Source: Pirellula staleyi DSM 6068 (GTDB taxonomy: Bacteria; Planctomycetota; Planctomycetia; Pirellulales; Pirellulaceae). From it: a stretch of 32,000 bases of DNA. Shown in pieces: positions 24,870 to 31,987 of this stretch. Made by a program: the position numbers and the translations under genes. A model generated the notes under the pieces. The model was not told the origin of the DNA and ran no database searches. It worked only from the letters and a program-made list of their open reading frames with translations. Location: the NCBI GenBank assembly GCA_000025185.1, contig CP001848.1, forward strand, positions 570,001 to 602,000. The letters are read 5' to 3'. Position 1 is the first letter of the stretch. The number at the start of each line of letters is the position of its first letter.

Positions 24870-25072
24870 TCGGGCTCCCGAGGCCAGAAATGCGCAAGGG
24901 AAGCCGGGAAACCTAAACCATAGGGCTAAGGGTGGTGGTTGAGAACCTAGCCCCTCCGGGATACACTGGAAGGCTGGTTTTTTGTGGGCTCGTCGGTGGT
25001 CTGATCAGCACCAACTGGCATGCCGGTTGCGGCAAGGAGCGGCAATTCTCGTTACGCGTGTGGGAGATCGTG

Positions 25073-25720
25073 ATGTCACTTGCAGCCAAACTGGTGGTCG
25101 TCGGAGGCGAAGTGAAGACAGCGGAGATTAAACTCCGGCTGCCTTCGACCATCGGCCGAGGACGCGACAGTACGATCATGCTGCGGCACCCGCTGGTGAG
25201 CCGTCTGCACTGCGAACTGTACGAGCAAGATGGTCAGCTGATGGTGCGCGATCTCGGCTCACTCAACGGCACCTTCATAAACAACCAGAAGATCACGGAA
25301 TCGTCGCTCCCCCCTGGTGAACTCCTGACGGTCGGAACTGTCACGTTTCGCGCGGTCTACGATTCGGCCGATACAGCGGCGAGTGCTCCACCCGCAGCGG
25401 CTGCCGAGCGAACCGCCACCTCTGCGCATCAAGCTACCACCGTCCGAGCACCTGCCAAAAGCAAACCCGAGGCTGGTCATCACGCTGGAAATGGGAAATC
25501 GGCTCCCCCTCCTTCCATCACTCCTCCCTCGGGAAGTGATCTCGGCGGCACCGAGCGAGCTGATGCCACGCTCGAAGAACTCGACGACGTGGAGGAAATT
25601 CTCGATCCCACTTCGCTCGGCTCTGGCGCCATTGAAAAGACCGAATCGATTGAAGAGATCGAGACGATCGAAGATGAGGATGAAGACGACCTCAACGACT
25701 TCCTCAAGAACATCAAATAG
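25073..25720 (+). CDS. FHA-domain protein with Ala/Pro-rich linker and strongly acidic C-terminal tail
   Basis: FHA motifs are present: TIGRGRD, VSRLHCEL, VRDLGSLNGTFINNQKI. I prefer the start at ATG 25073 (GGGAG upstream). The tail is EELDDVEEILDP...IEEIETIEDEDEDDLNDFLKNIK. Confidence 0.8.
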   Translation: MSLAAKLVVVGGEVKTAEIKLRLPSTIGRGRDSTIMLRHPLVSRLHCELYEQDGQLMVRDLGSLNGTFINNQKITESSLPPGELLTVGTVTFRAVYDSADTAASAPPAAAAERTATSAHQATTVRAPAKSKPEAGHHAGNGKSAPPPSITPPSGSDLGGTERADATLEELDDVEEILDPTSLGSGAIEKTESIEEIETIEDEDEDDLNDFLKNIK

Positions 25721-26868: not shown

Positions 26869-29800
26869 CTACTGACAAGCGCTCGAGGTCAGGAGCGGCT
26901 GCCAATCGATGTCGCTGCGGCAATGCAGCCGCGCTGCCAGCTGCGCAAGGTCGCTTCGATGCTCGATGATCGACGCAGCCAGATGCGCGAGCGACAAACT
27001 CCCCTGCTCCACACAGATCACCAAATCGCTATCCGCCTGCGCTAGAAGGGTTGGATCTTGCGTGAACTGATCTTTCCCGAGACGCTGTCCTACTAGCGAT
27101 GGTGTTAGTCCGGCGGCACTTTTCTGCGGGACAAGGCAGACCAAGCGACGCTCGCCACCAAAGCGACTTTCGGTCGGTAGCATCGAAGTCAGACACTGCG
27201 AAAGCACTGCATTCTTGCCATCCGCACCGTCGCCGCTCGAAGGATCGGTGATCAGCAACCGCGCGAGATCAATCTGCTCGAGTCGCGCCAACAGCACCCG
27301 CCGCAACTGCTGCTGCATCGCTGCGAGAAGCACTTCGCGTTTGTCGTTGCCACCCATGATCATGGCGCGCATGCCGCCAGCCGGTACGATCGTCGATTCC
27401 ATCAACGATTGATCAACTTCAGCCGCGAGGGCGTCGAGGTTCGATACTAGTTGCTCCATCACAGCTTCTTTGAGCTGCAACAGTTGCTCGGCTTGGGGGC
27501 TCGCTTCGCTCTCACTTGCTTCCGCCACTTCGCCAGTGATTTGCTGCGACAGATGCGTTAGTTCTCGACCAAAATCAAAAAGCCAGTCACTAACACCCAG
27601 AAGCGAGCCTTGCACGGCAACCACAAGCTGCCCGGTGAGGGCGCTGTTGGTCTCGATCATCCTGAGTCGGCACAAACGGAGTACTGCGGCTTGCACTTCT
27701 GCAAGCGTTGGCTTCTTGACACCACGGCTCGACTTGGGATCGGGGTGGGCAATTGACTGGAGTGCACGTTCGATTTGAATCGACTCTTGTTCCATCCGAG
27801 TACGCATTTCGCGCAGCTGTCCGCTGATCCCCTTCAAATGCGCTTCGAGCCATTTCACGCTCTTCTGCGCACCACGCAAACGATAGTGAGGATCTTCGAG
27901 CATCATCTCGAACCACTTGCGACAAGTGGCAGTGAAGGGAGCGACGAGGCGCGGCAATTGTTCCTCAATCGCCAAACGGAGCGGGCTGGGCTGAATCGGC
28001 GCTAGTTCATCTCCGAGCACGCGGCGTCCGAACAGATCTCCCACCGCAACGAGCCACGGATCAATCGGTAAATCAGCGCTATTGCCACGATGTTTCAAAA
28101 GCGCTGCAAAGACTTGCTCGGGATCGCCCCCCAGCTGTTCAGCTGCGGCGGCGTGGAGCAAATTCATCAGTGGTTCGAGCGTCAGACCGGCCGACTCGAC
28201 CAGCTGAGCCATTTGCGATTCCACTTCCTTTTCCCGCGACAAAACGGGGGGCGTGACTGTCGTGCTAGGGGATGCACCAAACTGGCGGGTCGACTTCTTG
28301 GGATCGGATTTTTTGACATCACCTTGCCAGCGCTGCACCACAGCTTCGCCGACGCGAGCCGCGATCTTGTCGAGCGCAACATCGTGCGAAAAACCAATCT
28401 GACAAATGCCAAACGTGCGTAGCCAACGCAGCTGCGAGTTATCGACGCTGCTCATTTCGCGCCGGCAACCTTCAAAGAATGCAGCCGATGGCGATTGTGT
28501 TTCGATCGCCAGGAAGTCAGCCACTTTTTGACAAGCCGACTCATACTGCGGAGCGCTCATCTCCAGTCCGAGCGTACTGACATAGACGTGATCAAACGGC
28601 GTTGTGCCGATGGAAGGTGTCTTCAGTCCCAGCGCACCATCGCCAGGATAGACCGCTTCACGATGTTCGAGCTGCGCGAGTTCTTCGAGCAGTGCGAACG
28701 AATTGACTTGCGCAAGCTGCTGCGACTGTGGATTGCGATTCGTACCCGACAGCAGCACACCACTCACACCAGCATGCGCGTGACCAAGTTCGGCCAAGAC
28801 TTGCCGTGCGGCGTAGCCAATGTCGATCACCATGCCGCTTCCGGTTCCGCCAGCGATCGAGGCGACCACAATCACGCGGGGTGAAAGTTGGTTGCTGCTA
28901 CCACTGGAAATTGCCAACTTCATGACTTGTCGCAGCTTGGCCCAAATCAAGTCCGACGAGTCGACCATCGCCAAACGCCCCAGAGGACGAAGCCCTTCGG
29001 TTTGCAGCGAGCGCGGAATGTTGTAGAGCCAGCGGCGCGAGAGCCACTCGAGAATTTTTCGCGAATCGGTGCGATAATCCTGCGTTTTACGAAGGGGAAG
29101 ATGGACCGTATCTTCGGGATCGAGCGCTGCACTGCCGGTCTGCGTCACAGCGCGCGAGAGGTCGCGCGAATCGGTGTCGAGCAGAATCATGGCTGCTTGC
29201 TGTTCTGCAGGAAGATCAGCCTGGCGTTTCCGCAATGCACTCAGCACCCGCCCTGCTGTGCCACCAATCCCAATCACGATGGTGGGTGGAGCCACTTGCT
29301 GCGGCTCGACCTTCAGCGGAGGAAGATCGATCGCGGGAAGAGATGCCTCGAGTCCTTCGAGTGAAGTGGTCCACGGACCACTTGCACGCGGCTCACCCGT
29401 GTCGCTTCCGTATTGCTGAACCAGGTCGCTCGCTGCATCGAGATCGCGCTCGATATCACTCGTGCCACGCGATGTTTGGGCTCGGCCATCGCGCGACGGA
29501 ATTGCGCCGTGCGATTGATGCGCTGTGCGGTCGGTCACATTACCTGAGTCGCTGGCGCCATCATGGTTTTCGGATGGTTTAGCAAGTGCGTGGGCCTGTG
29601 TCTTGCCGAGGGTAGCGCTGTCGCCAGTCACCGGTGTTGCGGGCGAACGTGGAGCAGCAACAGCAGCTTCTGCCGCGCGGCGCGGAGCGCTCTGCAGCAT
29701 CTCGACCAGTTCGCGGCAGCTGTTAAAGCGGTCTTTCGGATTCTTCGATAGCGCGCGCCCCACCACCGTTTGATCGTAGGCCGGGAGTGGCAATAAACGG

Positions 29801-30489
29801 GGACGCGCATTGAGATGCTGGGCAGCGAGCTGCGCTGCTGTTTTCCCGGGAAATGGCAGCATTCCCGTCAGCATCTCTTGATACACAATCGCCAAACTAT
29901 ACTGATCGCTGCGCTTGCTCGGACGCCCTTCAAACACTTCAGGCGGAGCATAAACGGGTGTCAAACCACCCATCATCGAAGCGGTGCAATCTTGAATATC
30001 TTTCACCAGACCGAAGTCGGCCACCTTAATGCGGCCACCCACGATCAGCATGTTCTCGGGTTTCACGTCAAGGTGCTGCAGCGAATGCTGCTCGCTCATG
30101 TAGTCGAGCGCGTCGGCGGCATCGTGCAGATGCTGCAGCAACTCTTCGCGAGCAATACCGGTCTGTCCCGCTTTGCGGCACTGCTCGTAACGATCCTTCA
30201 AACTGCAATCGGCAAGTTCGGTAACGATCAGCAGTTGACTATCGACCACCTCGATCCGCTCGAGCGAGAGCAAGAACGGATGCCGGACACCCTTGATGCG
30301 ATTGAGCGCTTTGAGCTCGCGCGCTGCACGGTCTTCATCGAGCAAGCCGTAGACGAACTTGATCGCCTTGATCAGCTGCCCCGGAGCTTCAGCCGTCCAG
30401 ACTTCGCCGTAGCCGCCAGCGCCAATGCGCTGCACAACCCGGTAGCCAGGAATCGGTTCAGGTGATCGTGAAACGAGTGGGGAAGACAC
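26869..30489 (-). CDS. Ser/Thr protein kinase fused to a tubulin/FtsZ-like GTPase domain (Tubulin_2-like) with long helical C-terminal region
   Basis: GTG start at 30489; an in-frame stop 5 codons upstream leaves no other start. Kinase motifs: GAGGYGEV, AIK, HLDVKPEN, DFG, APPE (aa ~15-270). A low-complexity linker covers aa ~270-400. The tubulin-like region has IVIGIGGTAGR (aa ~404-414) and ASIAGGTGSGMVID (aa 543-556; AGGTGSG = nt 28834-28854). About 500 further aa look mostly helical. Confidence 0.8.
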   Translation of the reverse strand: MSSPLVSRSPEPIPGYRVVQRIGAGGYGEVWTAEAPGQLIKAIKFVYGLLDEDRAARELKALNRIKGVRHPFLLSLERIEVVDSQLLIVTELADCSLKDRYEQCRKAGQTGIAREELLQHLHDAADALDYMSEQHSLQHLDVKPENMLIVGGRIKVADFGLVKDIQDCTASMMGGLTPVYAPPEVFEGRPSKRSDQYSLAIVYQEMLTGMLPFPGKTAAQLAAQHLNARPRLLPLPAYDQTVVGRALSKNPKDRFNSCRELVEMLQSAPRRAAEAAVAAPRSPATPVTGDSATLGKTQAHALAKPSENHDGASDSGNVTDRTAHQSHGAIPSRDGRAQTSRGTSDIERDLDAASDLVQQYGSDTGEPRASGPWTTSLEGLEASLPAIDLPPLKVEPQQVAPPTIVIGIGGTAGRVLSALRKRQADLPAEQQAAMILLDTDSRDLSRAVTQTGSAALDPEDTVHLPLRKTQDYRTDSRKILEWLSRRWLYNIPRSLQTEGLRPLGRLAMVDSSDLIWAKLRQVMKLAISSGSSNQLSPRVIVVASIAGGTGSGMVIDIGYAARQVLAELGHAHAGVSGVLLSGTNRNPQSQQLAQVNSFALLEELAQLEHREAVYPGDGALGLKTPSIGTTPFDHVYVSTLGLEMSAPQYESACQKVADFLAIETQSPSAAFFEGCRREMSSVDNSQLRWLRTFGICQIGFSHDVALDKIAARVGEAVVQRWQGDVKKSDPKKSTRQFGASPSTTVTPPVLSREKEVESQMAQLVESAGLTLEPLMNLLHAAAAEQLGGDPEQVFAALLKHRGNSADLPIDPWLVAVGDLFGRRVLGDELAPIQPSPLRLAIEEQLPRLVAPFTATCRKWFEMMLEDPHYRLRGAQKSVKWLEAHLKGISGQLREMRTRMEQESIQIERALQSIAHPDPKSSRGVKKPTLAEVQAAVLRLCRLRMIETNSALTGQLVVAVQGSLLGVSDWLFDFGRELTHLSQQITGEVAEASESEASPQAEQLLQLKEAVMEQLVSNLDALAAEVDQSLMESTIVPAGGMRAMIMGGNDKREVLLAAMQQQLRRVLLARLEQIDLARLLITDPSSGDGADGKNAVLSQCLTSMLPTESRFGGERRLVCLVPQKSAAGLTPSLVGQRLGKDQFTQDPTLLAQADSDLVICVEQGSLSLAHLAASIIEHRSDLAQLAARLHCRSDIDWQPLLTSSACQ

Positions 30490-30823
30490 CGCTAAGTAAC
30501 CTCAGCCTGCAAGGGGCTTACCATACCTATCGAGGATCGCCGGCACCGAACGAAGACGTTCGTCGAGAAACTTTTGCCTTGCGCGAGCAGGCGAAATTCG
30601 CTCACTCGTAGCGCAAGCGCAGGAAGATCCCGGGGCTTGTTCGTACAAAGAAGTCTTGCTTATTTTTTGGCAAGCGACGAAGAAACGGCACGCAGAGCTT
30701 CGCTCGCTGGCACTCGTTCTCAGCCCGGCGCGATACGACGCGCATGATCGCTACAACAGGCCCCGCAATCGGCTGTCGGGAATGGGCTGATGCGCTACAA
30801 GATCGTTTCTGCCGACCACTCCC

Positions 30824-31987
30824 TTAGGTAGGAAGCCCAACGCCAGGGATGGGCCATTCAATTGTCGTCGGCCGGCCGTAATGATCTCCCTGAGCATAAC
30901 GACAGCCGAGCGAACGACAGGTTTGTGCTTCGTTATCACTATGCACACCAGCCGCCACCAGTTGCGCGCCGATCTCCCCCGCAGCTTCCACAAGCGCTTT
31001 GATCTGACGCTGACGTTCGCTGCTGCGATCAACGCCTCGCGCCAGCGATGGCGAGAGCTTGATAAAGTCAGGAGCGAAGTCCTTTTGACTTTTGATCTGA
31101 TGCTGGCCCCCTGCAAAACCGACGTAAGCAACTCCTAATCCGAGTGCACGAAGACGATCGACAAAGTGGCGAAAGTACGGAATATCAACCACCGCTGAAT
31201 CGGGAATTTCTGCCACAACACGCTTGCCACCACTCACCGACGTGAGCGAAGCAAGAGACAGCGGCAACGCATCGGCTCCCACTTCGGCAGGCTGCAGATT
31301 CAGCAGCAACCACTGCGCGCCGGGCATCGTGGCGGCTTGTTCAGCTGCGAGTAAACGGTGCAGCTGTTGGGCTCGCTCGGTGAGTCGACAATCGGTCGAT
31401 TGCAACAGACGCTCGGCAGTGGTGGGCTCGAGTCCCGCGAGTTGCGGCCGGCGGATCGCTTCATACCCAACAGTGATTCCATCGCGTAAGTCGACGATTG
31501 GCTGAAAACGATTCCGTGCCGCGCGATGCAGCAGCATCTCCTGCTGCGCTCGTACCGCTTTCACGAGCAAAATAGCCGCATCATCGACACCATCCGACAT
31601 CGTTTCACAGGAATCCATCGGCTGCGTTACGGTTTTTCGAGTCGCCTCATCTCCCTTGGAATGAAAGCTAAACTCGACATCCGCTATCACCAACAAATCG
31701 CCATCGTGCAGCACCGTTTCGTCGATCTTCTGACCGTTCAAAACGGTACCGTTGGTACTCTTCAGATCGCGGACGCGAAACTGCGAGCCGTCGAACAAAA
31801 TCTCGGCATGCTCGCGTGATACTTTCGACGACAAGATCTGATAGTCGCACGATTCGTTCCGTCCCACCGTGAACGGAAACTGCTCGAGAGGGATCTGTTC
31901 CACCTGCCCCGAGGAGTCGCTCCGCTGAAGCCACGGAGTGAGCGTTTGCGTCGCGGAAAGCATCTTTGTGCGCATATGCACTGCCAC
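30824..31987 (-). CDS. FHA domain + degenerate EAL domain protein
   Basis: FHA motifs: TVGRNES, VSREHAEI, VRDLKSTNGTVLNGQKI. The EAL fold is recognisable from FQPIVDLRDGITVGYEAIRR, LLLNL, VVAEIPDS, VGFAGG, FIKLS, VAAGVHS and AQGDHYG. The listed start is GTG 31987 and an ATG lies at 31975. The frame is still open to the window edge, so the true start could lie beyond 32000. Confidence 0.75.
   Translation of the reverse strand: MAVHMRTKMLSATQTLTPWLQRSDSSGQVEQIPLEQFPFTVGRNESCDYQILSSKVSREHAEILFDGSQFRVRDLKSTNGTVLNGQKIDETVLHDGDLLVIADVEFSFHSKGDEATRKTVTQPMDSCETMSDGVDDAAILLVKAVRAQQEMLLHRAARNRFQPIVDLRDGITVGYEAIRRPQLAGLEPTTAERLLQSTDCRLTERAQQLHRLLAAEQAATMPGAQWLLLNLQPAEVGADALPLSLASLTSVSGGKRVVAEIPDSAVVDIPYFRHFVDRLRALGLGVAYVGFAGGQHQIKSQKDFAPDFIKLSPSLARGVDRSSERQRQIKALVEAAGEIGAQLVAAGVHSDNEAQTCRSLGCRYAQGDHYGRPTTIEWPIPGVGLPT

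Follow-up and report, generated by a model that had tools for sequence, protein, structure and literature searches.

A degenerate EAL domain fused to an intact FHA domain upstream of a kinase-FtsZl1 gene in Pirellula staleyi: a candidate phosphothreonine-dependent adaptor in a conserved Pirellulales module

In the mycobacterial and corynebacterial proteins GarA and OdhI, and FhaA and FhaB, with the kinases PknB and PknG, a Hanks kinase phosphorylates a threonine in a disordered tail, which is then bound by the protein's own FHA domain. A comparable switch acts on c-di-GMP metabolism in DgcB (Bd0742) of Bdellovibrio bacteriovorus (PDB 6HBZ, 6HC0), a tail-FHA-GGDEF protein gated by the phosphothreonine of its tail and its FHA domain (PMC6733907). 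Among arrangements that join an FHA domain to a c-di-GMP enzyme, only this cyclase counterpart has been studied so far. LapD and FimX (P. aeruginosa, Xanthomonas; PDB 3PJT, 4FOK) are c-di-GMP receptors in which the GGDEF and EAL domains are both degenerate, and in LapD of P. fluorescens the GGDEF domain occludes the EAL domain (PMC3032553). YdiV (STM1344) of Enterobacteria is an EAL-like anti-FlhD4C2 factor, a protein-binding EAL domain that neither binds nor hydrolyzes c-di-GMP (PMC3510510). In 2010, Makarova and Koonin described FtsZl1 proteins of planctomycetes that carry a kinase domain at their N-terminus, and mentioned the adjacency of the genes considered here in passing (PMC2875224). 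Our literature search found no paper describing an FHA-EAL architecture, in agreement with what an earlier note on this DNA had supposed.

The stretch analyzed here (the window) comprises 32,000 nucleotides of the Pirellula staleyi DSM 6068 genome. Its relevant features are as follows:

24932..25720, plus strand: gene for a small stand-alone FHA protein, convergent with the cluster
26869..30489, minus strand: gene for a Ser/Thr kinase-FtsZl1/Tubulin_2 protein (1206 aa; Pkinase E 5e-29, Tubulin_2 E 2.4e-60)
30490..30823, minus strand: spacer from the FHA-EAL stop to the kinase start, up to 334 nt
30824..31975, minus strand: FHA-EAL coding sequence (383 aa, running from ATG 31975 to the stop codon at 30824-30826)
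30869..31549, minus strand: EAL-fold domain without catalytic metal ligands (Pfam, phmmer alignments and Foldseek)
31613..31639, minus strand: interdomain linker motif R-K-T-V-T-Q-P-M-D, with T-Q-x-hydrophobic in a segment predicted to be disordered
31661..31933, minus strand: FHA domain (PF00498 match, Pfam core 31685-31870) with the phosphothreonine-binding residues G-R, S-R-x-H and N-G-T intact
31958..31975, minus strand: N-terminal tail motif M-R-T-K-M-L (consensus M-x-T-[QKEV]-x-[MILV]), with T3 as candidate phospho-acceptor and ligand of the FHA domain

The ATG at 31975 was preferred as the start over the GTG at 31987 because orthologues begin with M-R-T. In the open reading frame 30824..31987 on the minus strand, Pfam placed an FHA domain at residues 40-101 (E 5.8e-20, 71.9 bits against a cut-off of 20.7) and an EAL domain (PF00563) at residues 147-373 (E 1.1e-29, 103.9 bits against a cut-off of 31.3), the latter covering profile positions 3-236 of 236. 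With its PF00498 match and its G-R, S-R-x-H and N-G-T residues, the first of these is a member of the FHA family, and its top PDB sequence matches were the FHA structures of Rv0020c/FhaA, GarA and Rv1747; the FHA chains of DgcB were also among the matches of the protein. LapD was the closest PDB sequence match of the EAL part. All NCBIfam matches (RimA, CsrD, LapD, FhaB and others) fell far under their cut-offs, and no equivalog could be assigned.

Of 151 Pirellulales genomes, 73 encode FHA-EAL proteins, which also occur in one other family of the taxonomic class, ruling out a one-off fusion; at a threshold of E<=1e-25 none was found in the remainder of a 201-genome sample of the phylum. The Pirellulales proteins from the 151 genomes form two classes, one canonical (class B) and one degenerate (class A), split by a single branch with an SH-aLRT of 100, and by its sequence the protein encoded here is a class A, degenerate member of this planctomycete family. 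In a family alignment (MAFFT --auto), mean pairwise identity was 53% for the FHA domain and 27% for the EAL domain in class A, as opposed to 45% and 51% in class B. Columns conserved to at least 90% numbered 24 in the class A FHA domain versus 14 in class B; for the EAL domain the counts were 1 and 55, respectively. The FHA domain had been called intact in the earlier note, and the phosphothreonine-binding residues (G, R, S, R, H, N, G, T) indeed do not vary among 120 orthologues or within class A; the pocket is intact and strongly constrained.

Residues of the EAL domain were assigned from phmmer alignments to RocR (3sy8), BlrP1 (3gfx) and LapD (3pjt), using RocR numbering. The protein retains E175 (YEAIRR), R179, N233 (LLLNL), E265 (AEIPD), K316 (FIKLS) and Q372, and carries the replacements E268D, D295V and D296G (VGFA), D318S, E352A and E355H (AGVH), as well as Asp for the Tyr of QGY. 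Every residue call by which the earlier note had judged the domain degenerate (VGFA, KxS, AGVH, QGD) was borne out against all three structures. A shifted hand alignment was ruled out, as the three pairwise alignments and the family alignment agree on the residues. Ten key positions were scored (E175, R179, N233, E265, E268, D295, D296, K316, E352 and Q372); 6/10 are kept here versus 7/10 in LapD in the same alignment. The EAL fold is thus kept and the metal and catalytic residues are lost.

Orthologues are automatically annotated as 'putative c-di-GMP-specific phosphodiesterase class I', and the full-length profile match together with the presence of E175, N233, E265 and K316 would be in keeping with a phosphodiesterase gated by phosphothreonine, as its two paralogues may be. 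We regard such an activity as very improbable. An active enzyme would keep all ten positions, and four are changed in the protein studied here (D295V, D296G, E352A, E268D), in addition to D318 and E355. The changes at D296, D318, E352 and E355 are conserved among the 120 orthologues. RocR mutagenesis is said to have established that these acidic residues are required for metal binding and catalysis. The two FHA-EAL paralogues in the same genome, on the other hand, retain 10/10 of the key residues. P. staleyi has three EAL domains in all, every one of them fused to FHA and the other two catalytically intact; a second of these three FHA-EAL genes lies in an operon with a different Ser/Thr kinase and an FHA-histidine kinase. 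Because every EAL domain is FHA-fused, c-di-GMP breakdown in this species, along with whatever role the degenerate copy has, appears to be wired to Ser/Thr-kinase signalling and not to the usual REC, PAS or GAF inputs.

An AF2 model of the protein, built from the alignment, had a mean pLDDT of 82.7. The FHA beta-sandwich spans residues 15-105 (pLDDT about 90), while residues 1-11 and the linker residues 109-128 fell below 50, the linker being predicted to be disordered. The remainder was predicted with confidence as a TIM-like EAL fold, with Foldseek TMt values of 0.73-0.81 to the EAL domains of MorA, PdeA, LapD and FimX. The whole-domain profile match and this predicted EAL-type fold place the domain in the EAL superfamily (PF00563). 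They also bear on the idea that the EAL part is a decaying relic without a function of its own and that the FHA domain alone matters. The high divergence of the class A EAL domain, with its 27% mean identity and single conserved column next to a highly conserved FHA domain, speaks for decay. However, we consider it improbable, given the confidently predicted fold and the fact that an EAL-length reading frame is intact in 53 class A genes across Pirellulales (proteins of ~380-435 aa). Truncated, FHA-only versions occurred only as rare fragments (loci L095 and L120), and within the Pirellulaceae subclade the EAL domain is well conserved, lineage-specific residues included (H at E355, D at Y374, W374).

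The earlier note had proposed that c-di-GMP binding is coupled to phosphothreonine recognition. In its strict form, this would make the degenerate EAL domain a dedicated receptor of the LapD/FimX type, with c-di-GMP binding as an essential input. LapD tops the PDB sequence matches of the domain, and the number of key residues kept, including E175, R179, K316 and Q372, comes near that of LapD. The Arg after the EAL motif, the aromatic-Gln of F/YQP, E175 and Q372 are present in this protein and at least 95% conserved in the 120 close orthologues, with the metal ligands lost, which is the pattern expected of a non-hydrolyzing binder. The genome also has eight GGDEF matches, and therefore the ligand is likely to be made. 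Yet the same pocket residues are not conserved across class A, whose members keep 0-7 of the ten key residues (median about 2), three of them keeping none; a relative in the same family at 54% identity keeps three and is without R179. Only one EAL column is at least 90% conserved in class A. D295 is retained in 96 of the 120 close orthologues but is Val here, and YdiV demonstrates that degenerate EAL domains can work without c-di-GMP (PMC3510510). A dedicated receptor is therefore a reading that we take seriously but think rather unlikely. As the pocket in the Pirellula lineage keeps base and phosphate contacts (F-Q, E175, R179, K316, Q372), c-di-GMP may be an extra input there, but it is not the function common to the whole class.

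The gene lies on the same strand as the kinase-FtsZl1 gene and directly upstream of it, as had been noted earlier, with a gap of at most 334 nt. No intrinsic-terminator-like site was found in the spacer by a simple scan, and neither a terminator nor a sigma-70-like promoter was found between 30300 and 32000 by a scan that is uninformative for Planctomycetes. The kinase-FtsZl1 protein, the product of the sole Tubulin_2 gene of the genome, combines a Hanks-type, non-RD kinase with an HLD catalytic loop, an FtsZl1/Tubulin_2 domain and a long helical tail, and its kinase motifs are conserved across 21 kinase-FtsZl1 orthologues. We presume it to be the source of the phosphothreonine signal. Its kinase linker reads D-S-A-T-L in P. 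staleyi, which deviates from the D-T-x-x-[VLI] consensus. In a 90%-identical relative, a small FHA gene also adjoins the kinase gene.

Across Pirellulales, class A genes nearly always sit between a divergent REC-GGDEF-CBS gene and the kinase-FtsZl1 gene, forming a three-gene module. The kinase-tubulin gene was within 6 kb of 47/53 class A genes, nearly all of which lay directly upstream of it on the same strand. The co-occurrence check suggested in the earlier note gave 69 of the 151 genomes with both genes, 4 and 6 with only one of the two and 72 with neither, and 71 of 87 kinase-linked tubulin-like genes had an FHA-EAL gene within 6 kb, although these co-occurrence and synteny counts are inflated by the relatedness of the genomes. 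A divergent REC-GGDEF-CBS gene was found within 1.5 kb of 42/56 class A genes versus 0/59 class B genes, making it the most constant neighbor of class A, and its GGDEF signature was degenerate in all 38 readable cases (loci L129 and L131, with a wrong-strand ORF, were left out of this count). In P. staleyi this partner gene is located at contig positions 602289-603797. Two class A genes in the order sample are truly unlinked from the kinase gene (G145 and G142), and four others are contig-end cases; when the two genes lie apart, the genome still retains the kinase-FtsZl1 gene (Anatilimnocola, G145).

Universal adjacency to the kinase was ruled out. Most of the closest relatives (52-65% identity) have lost the kinase gene from the adjacent position; it is separate in 8 of the 9 for which the context was read. 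Adjacency is therefore not required, and the FHA domain could respond to a different kinase among the many that these genomes encode. Order-wide synteny and co-occurrence nevertheless support a functional tie between the FHA-EAL protein and the neighboring kinase. Of the coupling proposed earlier, the link to the kinase is thus strengthened, while c-di-GMP as a conserved function is weakened by a class A pocket that is free to vary.

Specific to class A, as judged from the alignments, are two T-Q-x-hydrophobic motifs, the first located at the very N-terminus and the second in the disordered linker between FHA and EAL. The N-terminal motif was present in 30/53 class A versus 0/58 class B proteins, and the linker motif in 36/53 versus 3/58. 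All 41 aligned orthologues share M1, R2 and T3, and T115 and T117 (383-aa numbering) are likewise invariant in the aligned orthologues. In the protein studied here T3 is followed by K and not by the consensus Q. T3 (M-R-T-K-M-L) and T117 (T-Q-P-M) both have a hydrophobic residue at +3 and lie in segments predicted to be disordered, as in GarA, OdhI and DgcB. The conserved threonines T3, T115 and T117 could also serve a different purpose than FHA binding. These motifs, the two intact paralogues and the divergent degenerate-GGDEF partner were not mentioned in the earlier note.

Class A conserves the FHA domain and the T-Q-x-hydrophobic motifs but leaves the EAL pocket nearly free of constraint; its shared role is therefore probably that of a phosphothreonine-dependent adaptor or scaffold. 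We accordingly lean towards the protein being a non-catalytic, phosphothreonine-dependent adaptor in a conserved Pirellulales module, and rate this somewhat better than an even chance. It is hypothesized that the kinase would phosphorylate the threonines of the T-Q-x-hydrophobic motifs, the D-T-x-x-[VLI] site in its own juxta-kinase linker, or both, and that the FHA domain would then bind the phosphothreonine. Such binding could be in cis, resulting in a closed state similar to that of GarA, OdhI and DgcB, or in trans, in which case the protein would either dock on the kinase-FtsZl1 protein or self-associate. Either could reposition the degenerate EAL domain, which would act as a platform for dimerization or partner binding. 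Its likeliest partner would be the adjacently encoded degenerate-GGDEF protein, which would recreate in trans the LapD/FimX pair of degenerate GGDEF and EAL domains.

A bolder extension, which we offer as speculation and consider unlikely, is that the FHA-EAL and REC-GGDEF-CBS proteins form a 'split LapD/FimX-like' pseudo-enzyme pair whose assembly on the kinase-FtsZl1 protein is switched by the threonine phosphorylation that this kinase carries out, with c-di-GMP as a further input in some lineages, and that this complex controls the polymerization or placement of the FtsZ-like protein. If true, second-messenger and Ser/Thr-kinase signalling would thereby be linked to cell division or membrane remodelling in the FtsZ-less, budding Pirellulales. 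At the center of the module stands a kinase joined to an FtsZ-like GTPase, in organisms whose division proceeds without FtsZ. Its EAL domains also form a natural series, ranging from fully active to completely eroded, that should be useful for asking why c-di-GMP pseudo-enzymes are kept.

The neighboring protein belongs to the planctomycete kinase-FtsZl1 proteins of the FtsZl1/Tubulin_2 operons of Makarova and Koonin (PMC2875224), a paper that is silent on the FHA domain, the loss of catalytic residues, the degenerate-GGDEF partner and the breadth of the linkage. Like DgcB, the protein joins an FHA domain with a consensus-type pocket to a domain of c-di-GMP metabolism, has a conserved Thr as FHA ligand (shown for DgcB and proposed here) within a disordered tail that flanks the FHA domain, and is presumed to act downstream of a Ser/Thr kinase. 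It differs in that its output is a dead EAL domain in place of GGDEF, that the FHA domain has candidate Thr motifs on either side and that an adjacent gene encodes the presumed cognate kinase, which is fused to an FtsZ-like domain. The same logic is proposed as for GarA/OdhI and FhaA/FhaB, which include the best matches of the FHA domain, although those belong to another phylum, whereas here FHA is fused to an EAL fold and the kinase to an FtsZ-like GTPase.

LapD and FimX resemble the protein in the loss of DDFG and the retention of the Arg after the EAL motif, N233, E265, K316 and Q372, and in the pairing of a dead GGDEF with a dead EAL domain, which is proposed here. FimX, moreover, has a degenerate receiver domain, and the neighbor of the FHA-EAL gene encodes a REC domain. 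In the Pirellulales module, however, the two domains are on separate, divergently transcribed proteins, the inputs are FHA and REC/CBS with no HAMP or periplasmic part, E352 is lost where LapD keeps it, and the c-di-GMP-binding residues are not conserved among class A orthologues. YdiV is a stand-alone EAL domain with 2/10 key residues, eight being lost, whereas the P. staleyi protein has lost four and carries an FHA domain; many class A orthologues, with 0-2/10 kept, are as eroded as YdiV.

The degenerate FHA-EAL gene of the window lies upstream of the kinase-tubulin (kinase-FtsZl1) gene, in a genome consisting of a single contig of 6,196,199 bp (C1 below), of which the window spans C1:570001-602000.

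30824-31987, minus strand: FHA-EAL open reading frame, 387 aa if counted from GTG
FHA-EAL residues 40-101: FHA domain (Pfam, E 5.8e-20)
FHA-EAL residues 147-373: full-length EAL domain (Pfam, E 1.1e-29)
26869-30489, same strand, downstream of FHA-EAL: Pkinase and Tubulin_2 protein of 1206 aa (Pfam), its start at most 334 nt past the FHA-EAL stop codon

Orthologues of 380-385 aa open with M-R-T, and an alignment of 41 sequences shows no variation at M1, R2 or T3; the true start is therefore assigned to the ATG at 31975, for a predicted product of 383 aa. Homologues carry the names 'Pirellulaceae bacterium' and Anatilimnocola, and the automatic database label of the family is 'EAL domain-containing protein (putative phosphodiesterase)'. 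An AlphaFold2 model built from 41 orthologues (mean pLDDT 82.7) was confident for the FHA beta-sandwich (residues 15-105) and the EAL barrel (residues 130-375), with a disordered interdomain linker (residues 109-128; pLDDT <50). Foldseek hits for the EAL region were the corresponding domains of MorA, PdeA, RocR, BlrP1, LapD and FimX (TMt 0.73-0.81).

The earlier note had read this EAL domain as catalytically degenerate. Comparison of the EAL region with RocR, BlrP1 and LapD in phmmer alignments bore out all of the note's residue calls and confirmed the loss. Retained (RocR numbering) are E175 and R179 (YEAIRR), N233 (LLLNL), E265 (AEIPD), K316 (FIKLS) and Q372; replaced are E268 (D), D295 and D296 (V and G, in VGFA), D318 (S), E352 and E355 (A and H, in AGVH) and the Tyr following QG (D). 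Six of ten canonical residues are thus kept, and LapD keeps seven in the same alignment, lacking E175, D295 and D296. The domain is predicted to be well-folded, and c-di-GMP hydrolysis cannot be expected of it.

The P. staleyi genome has eight GGDEF matches and exactly three EAL domains, each of the latter in an FHA-EAL protein of ~375-385 aa. The other two lie outside the window, one of them in a run of genes with overlapping ends.

C1:5579655-5580773, minus strand: FHA-EAL paralogue
C1:5905573-5906706, plus strand: FHA-EAL paralogue
C1:5899681-5906706, plus strand: three-gene run, outside the window

Both paralogues have all ten residues (ELxR, N, ExxE, DDFG, KxD, EGVE, QGY/F). Since all three EAL domains are FHA-fused and the other two are intact, FHA-EAL is, as judged by sequence, the standard EAL protein form of P. 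staleyi, and the window gene its catalytically dead member. All c-di-GMP hydrolysis in P. staleyi appears to be coupled to FHA domains, because both catalytically canonical EAL domains belong to FHA-EAL proteins. In the run, the first gene specifies a Ser/Thr kinase of 1298 aa (Pkinase, Polyketide_cyc2-like and DUF5939) and the second an FHA-PAS-HisKA-HATPase-REC hybrid kinase; the canonical FHA-EAL at 5905573 comes last. The run is a second, independent kinase-to-FHA-EAL wiring.

Of 151 Pirellulales genomes sampled evenly, 73 have full-length FHA-EAL matches, and all 115 matches outside P. staleyi were fetched for a motif table. They form two groups split by one tree branch (SH-aLRT 100). Class B (59 usable members) has all ten catalytic residues, with mean pairwise identities of 45% in the FHA and 51% in the EAL domain. 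In class A (53 usable members, the window protein among them) the FHA residues GR...SRxH...NGT are invariant, the EAL domain retains from 0 to 7 of the ten key residues (median ~2), and the corresponding identities are 53% and 27%. Columns conserved at 90% or more number 24 in class A against 14 in class B for the FHA domain, and 1 against 55 for the EAL domain; these counts indicate that selection in class A is on the FHA domain and on upkeep of an EAL-sized fold, and not on the nucleotide pocket. The degeneracy is stable in the subclade of the window protein (120 proteins, 52-99% identity, mainly Pirellulaceae metagenome sequences), where D296 is G in 109/120, D318 is A, S or T in 120/120, E355 is H in 116/120 and Y374 is D in 112/120; F/Y-Q, E175, R179 and Q372 are at least 95% conserved there. 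In a phylum sample of 201 genomes, full-length FHA-EAL occurred in P. staleyi and, within its class, in five of the eight genomes from a single further family, and was not found elsewhere in that sample.

The same 151 genomes were searched with the tubulin-like part of the neighboring protein, which was present in 76. On the co-occurrence that the earlier note had proposed checking, 69 genomes carry both genes, four FHA-EAL alone and six the tubulin-like gene alone, and for 71 of the 87 tubulin-like genes an FHA-EAL lies no more than 6 kb away. Kinase-tubulin adjoins 47/53 class A genes, the class A gene almost always lying directly upstream on the same strand; the six exceptions comprise four at contig ends and two true relocations (G145, G142). 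Likewise, 20/59 class B genes adjoin kinase-tubulin, in divergent, downstream or upstream arrangements. In nine genomes (G010, G036, G037, G074, G076, G102, G115, G117 and G134) kinase-tubulin is present twice, one copy paired with a degenerate class A and the other with an intact class B FHA-EAL, which suggests duplication of the whole pair followed by inactivation of one EAL.

The more constant neighbor of class A is a divergent REC-GGDEF-CBS gene, which in P. staleyi begins 289 nt past the window end.

C1:602289-603797, plus strand: REC-GGDEF-CBSx2 gene, GGDEF signature GDDHF
C1:602289-605176, plus strand: the same gene and the NTP_transf_4 sugar-nucleotidyltransferase-like gene that follows it

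A divergent orthologue lies within 1.5 kb of 42/56 class A genes and 0/59 class B genes. Its GGDEF signature is degenerate in all 38 readable copies (e.g. LGDDRL, LGSDRF, AGDNRF), and most orthologues keep the phospho-acceptor Asp of the receiver domain. Gene context was read for nine proteins closely related to that of the window. Among those at 54-64% identity, the REC-GGDEF-CBS and NTP_transf_4 genes are kept divergently in 7/7 with a readable upstream side (for the eighth, P0026, the contig begins too close for that side to be read), and kinase-tubulin adjoins in 0/8; in Anatilimnocola sp. NA78 its orthologue is present ~4.7 Mb from the FHA-EAL gene. A 90%-identical relative (locus L165) has the full arrangement, small FHA gene included. 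The neighborhood and these contexts therefore identify the module, degenerate REC-GGDEF-CBS, then (divergently) degenerate FHA-EAL, then kinase-FtsZl1, as ancestral for class A, with the kinase link loosened in one lineage.

The small FHA gene of the window (24932-25720, plus strand) encodes a stand-alone protein of 262 aa and is convergent to the cluster; in L165 the corresponding position beside kinase-tubulin is taken by an FHA gene of 226 aa. At G087:C5:511711-516686, REC-GGDEF-CBS and kinase-tubulin lie ~2.4 kb apart, with no above-threshold FHA-EAL match between the two; a class A gene diverged beyond detection may lie there.

Two candidate phospho-site motifs, at the N-terminus and in the FHA-EAL linker, are specific to class A in the aligned proteins. 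M-x-T-[QKEV]-x-[MILV] opens 30/53 class A and 0/58 class B proteins (window, M-R-T-K-M-L), and T-[QE]-x-[MILV] is in the linker of 36/53 and 3/58, respectively (window, R-K-T-V-T-Q-P-M-D). Neither T115 nor T117 varies among the 41 aligned sequences, and both lie in the predicted-disordered segment; class B linkers also have a conserved Thr, in a different context. FHA domains usually bind a Thr that is followed at +3 by a hydrophobic residue, and PknB-type kinases prefer T-Q sites. The kinases linked to class A genes, of which 21 were compared, show high conservation of the kinase domain (GxGxxG, AIK with its Lys, HLDVKPEN, DFG), including a Ser/Thr in the activation loop. The kinase-to-tubulin linker (window 29300-29700, minus strand; aa ~265-400) is Ser/Thr/Pro-rich and highly variable. 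A semi-conserved D-T-x-x-[VLI], found in most orthologues ~25-35 aa beyond the kinase domain (D-S-A-T-L in the window kinase), is a candidate site for autophosphorylation and for docking of the FHA domain.

We propose that the kinase would phosphorylate the threonines of the FHA-EAL tail and linker, its own linker, or both, and that the FHA domain would bind the phosphothreonine in cis or in trans. The degenerate EAL domain would serve as a dimerisation or partner-binding platform. The reading put forward in the earlier note, in which c-di-GMP binding is coupled to phosphothreonine recognition, is supported in part: because the subclade of the window protein preserves the contact residues, c-di-GMP binding by this protein is plausible, if rated somewhat short of probable, but the pocket is not conserved across class A, and from the aligned residues such binding cannot be the function common to that class. 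The note's view of FHA-EAL as an undescribed architecture agrees with the literature searched: the string 'FHA-EAL' occurred in no paper of the library, and combined searches returned DgcB and unrelated work only.

FtsZl1 and four planctomycete kinase fusions were described by Makarova & Koonin 2010 (PMC2875224), where a reviewer comment links the FtsZl1 of Pirellula staleyi to Psta_0487, named there 'a diguanylate phosphodiesterase'; the evidence suggests that Psta_0487 is the window FHA-EAL gene. The present analysis contributes the class A/B split, the constraint on each domain, the range of residue retention and the Thr motifs. The degenerate FHA-EAL offers a way into kinase-FtsZl1 biology that can be tested. 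By analogy with LapD, in which the degenerate GGDEF packs onto the binding face of the degenerate EAL (PMC3032553), the probable partner of the EAL domain would be the adjoining dead-GGDEF protein. We infer that the window protein combines an FHA-gated c-di-GMP-domain protein with a degenerate-EAL adaptor or receptor; DgcB is gated by binding of a tail phosphothreonine to its FHA domain (PMC6733907), and YdiV, with 8/10 residues lost and no c-di-GMP binding, uses its EAL domain for protein binding only (PMC3510510).
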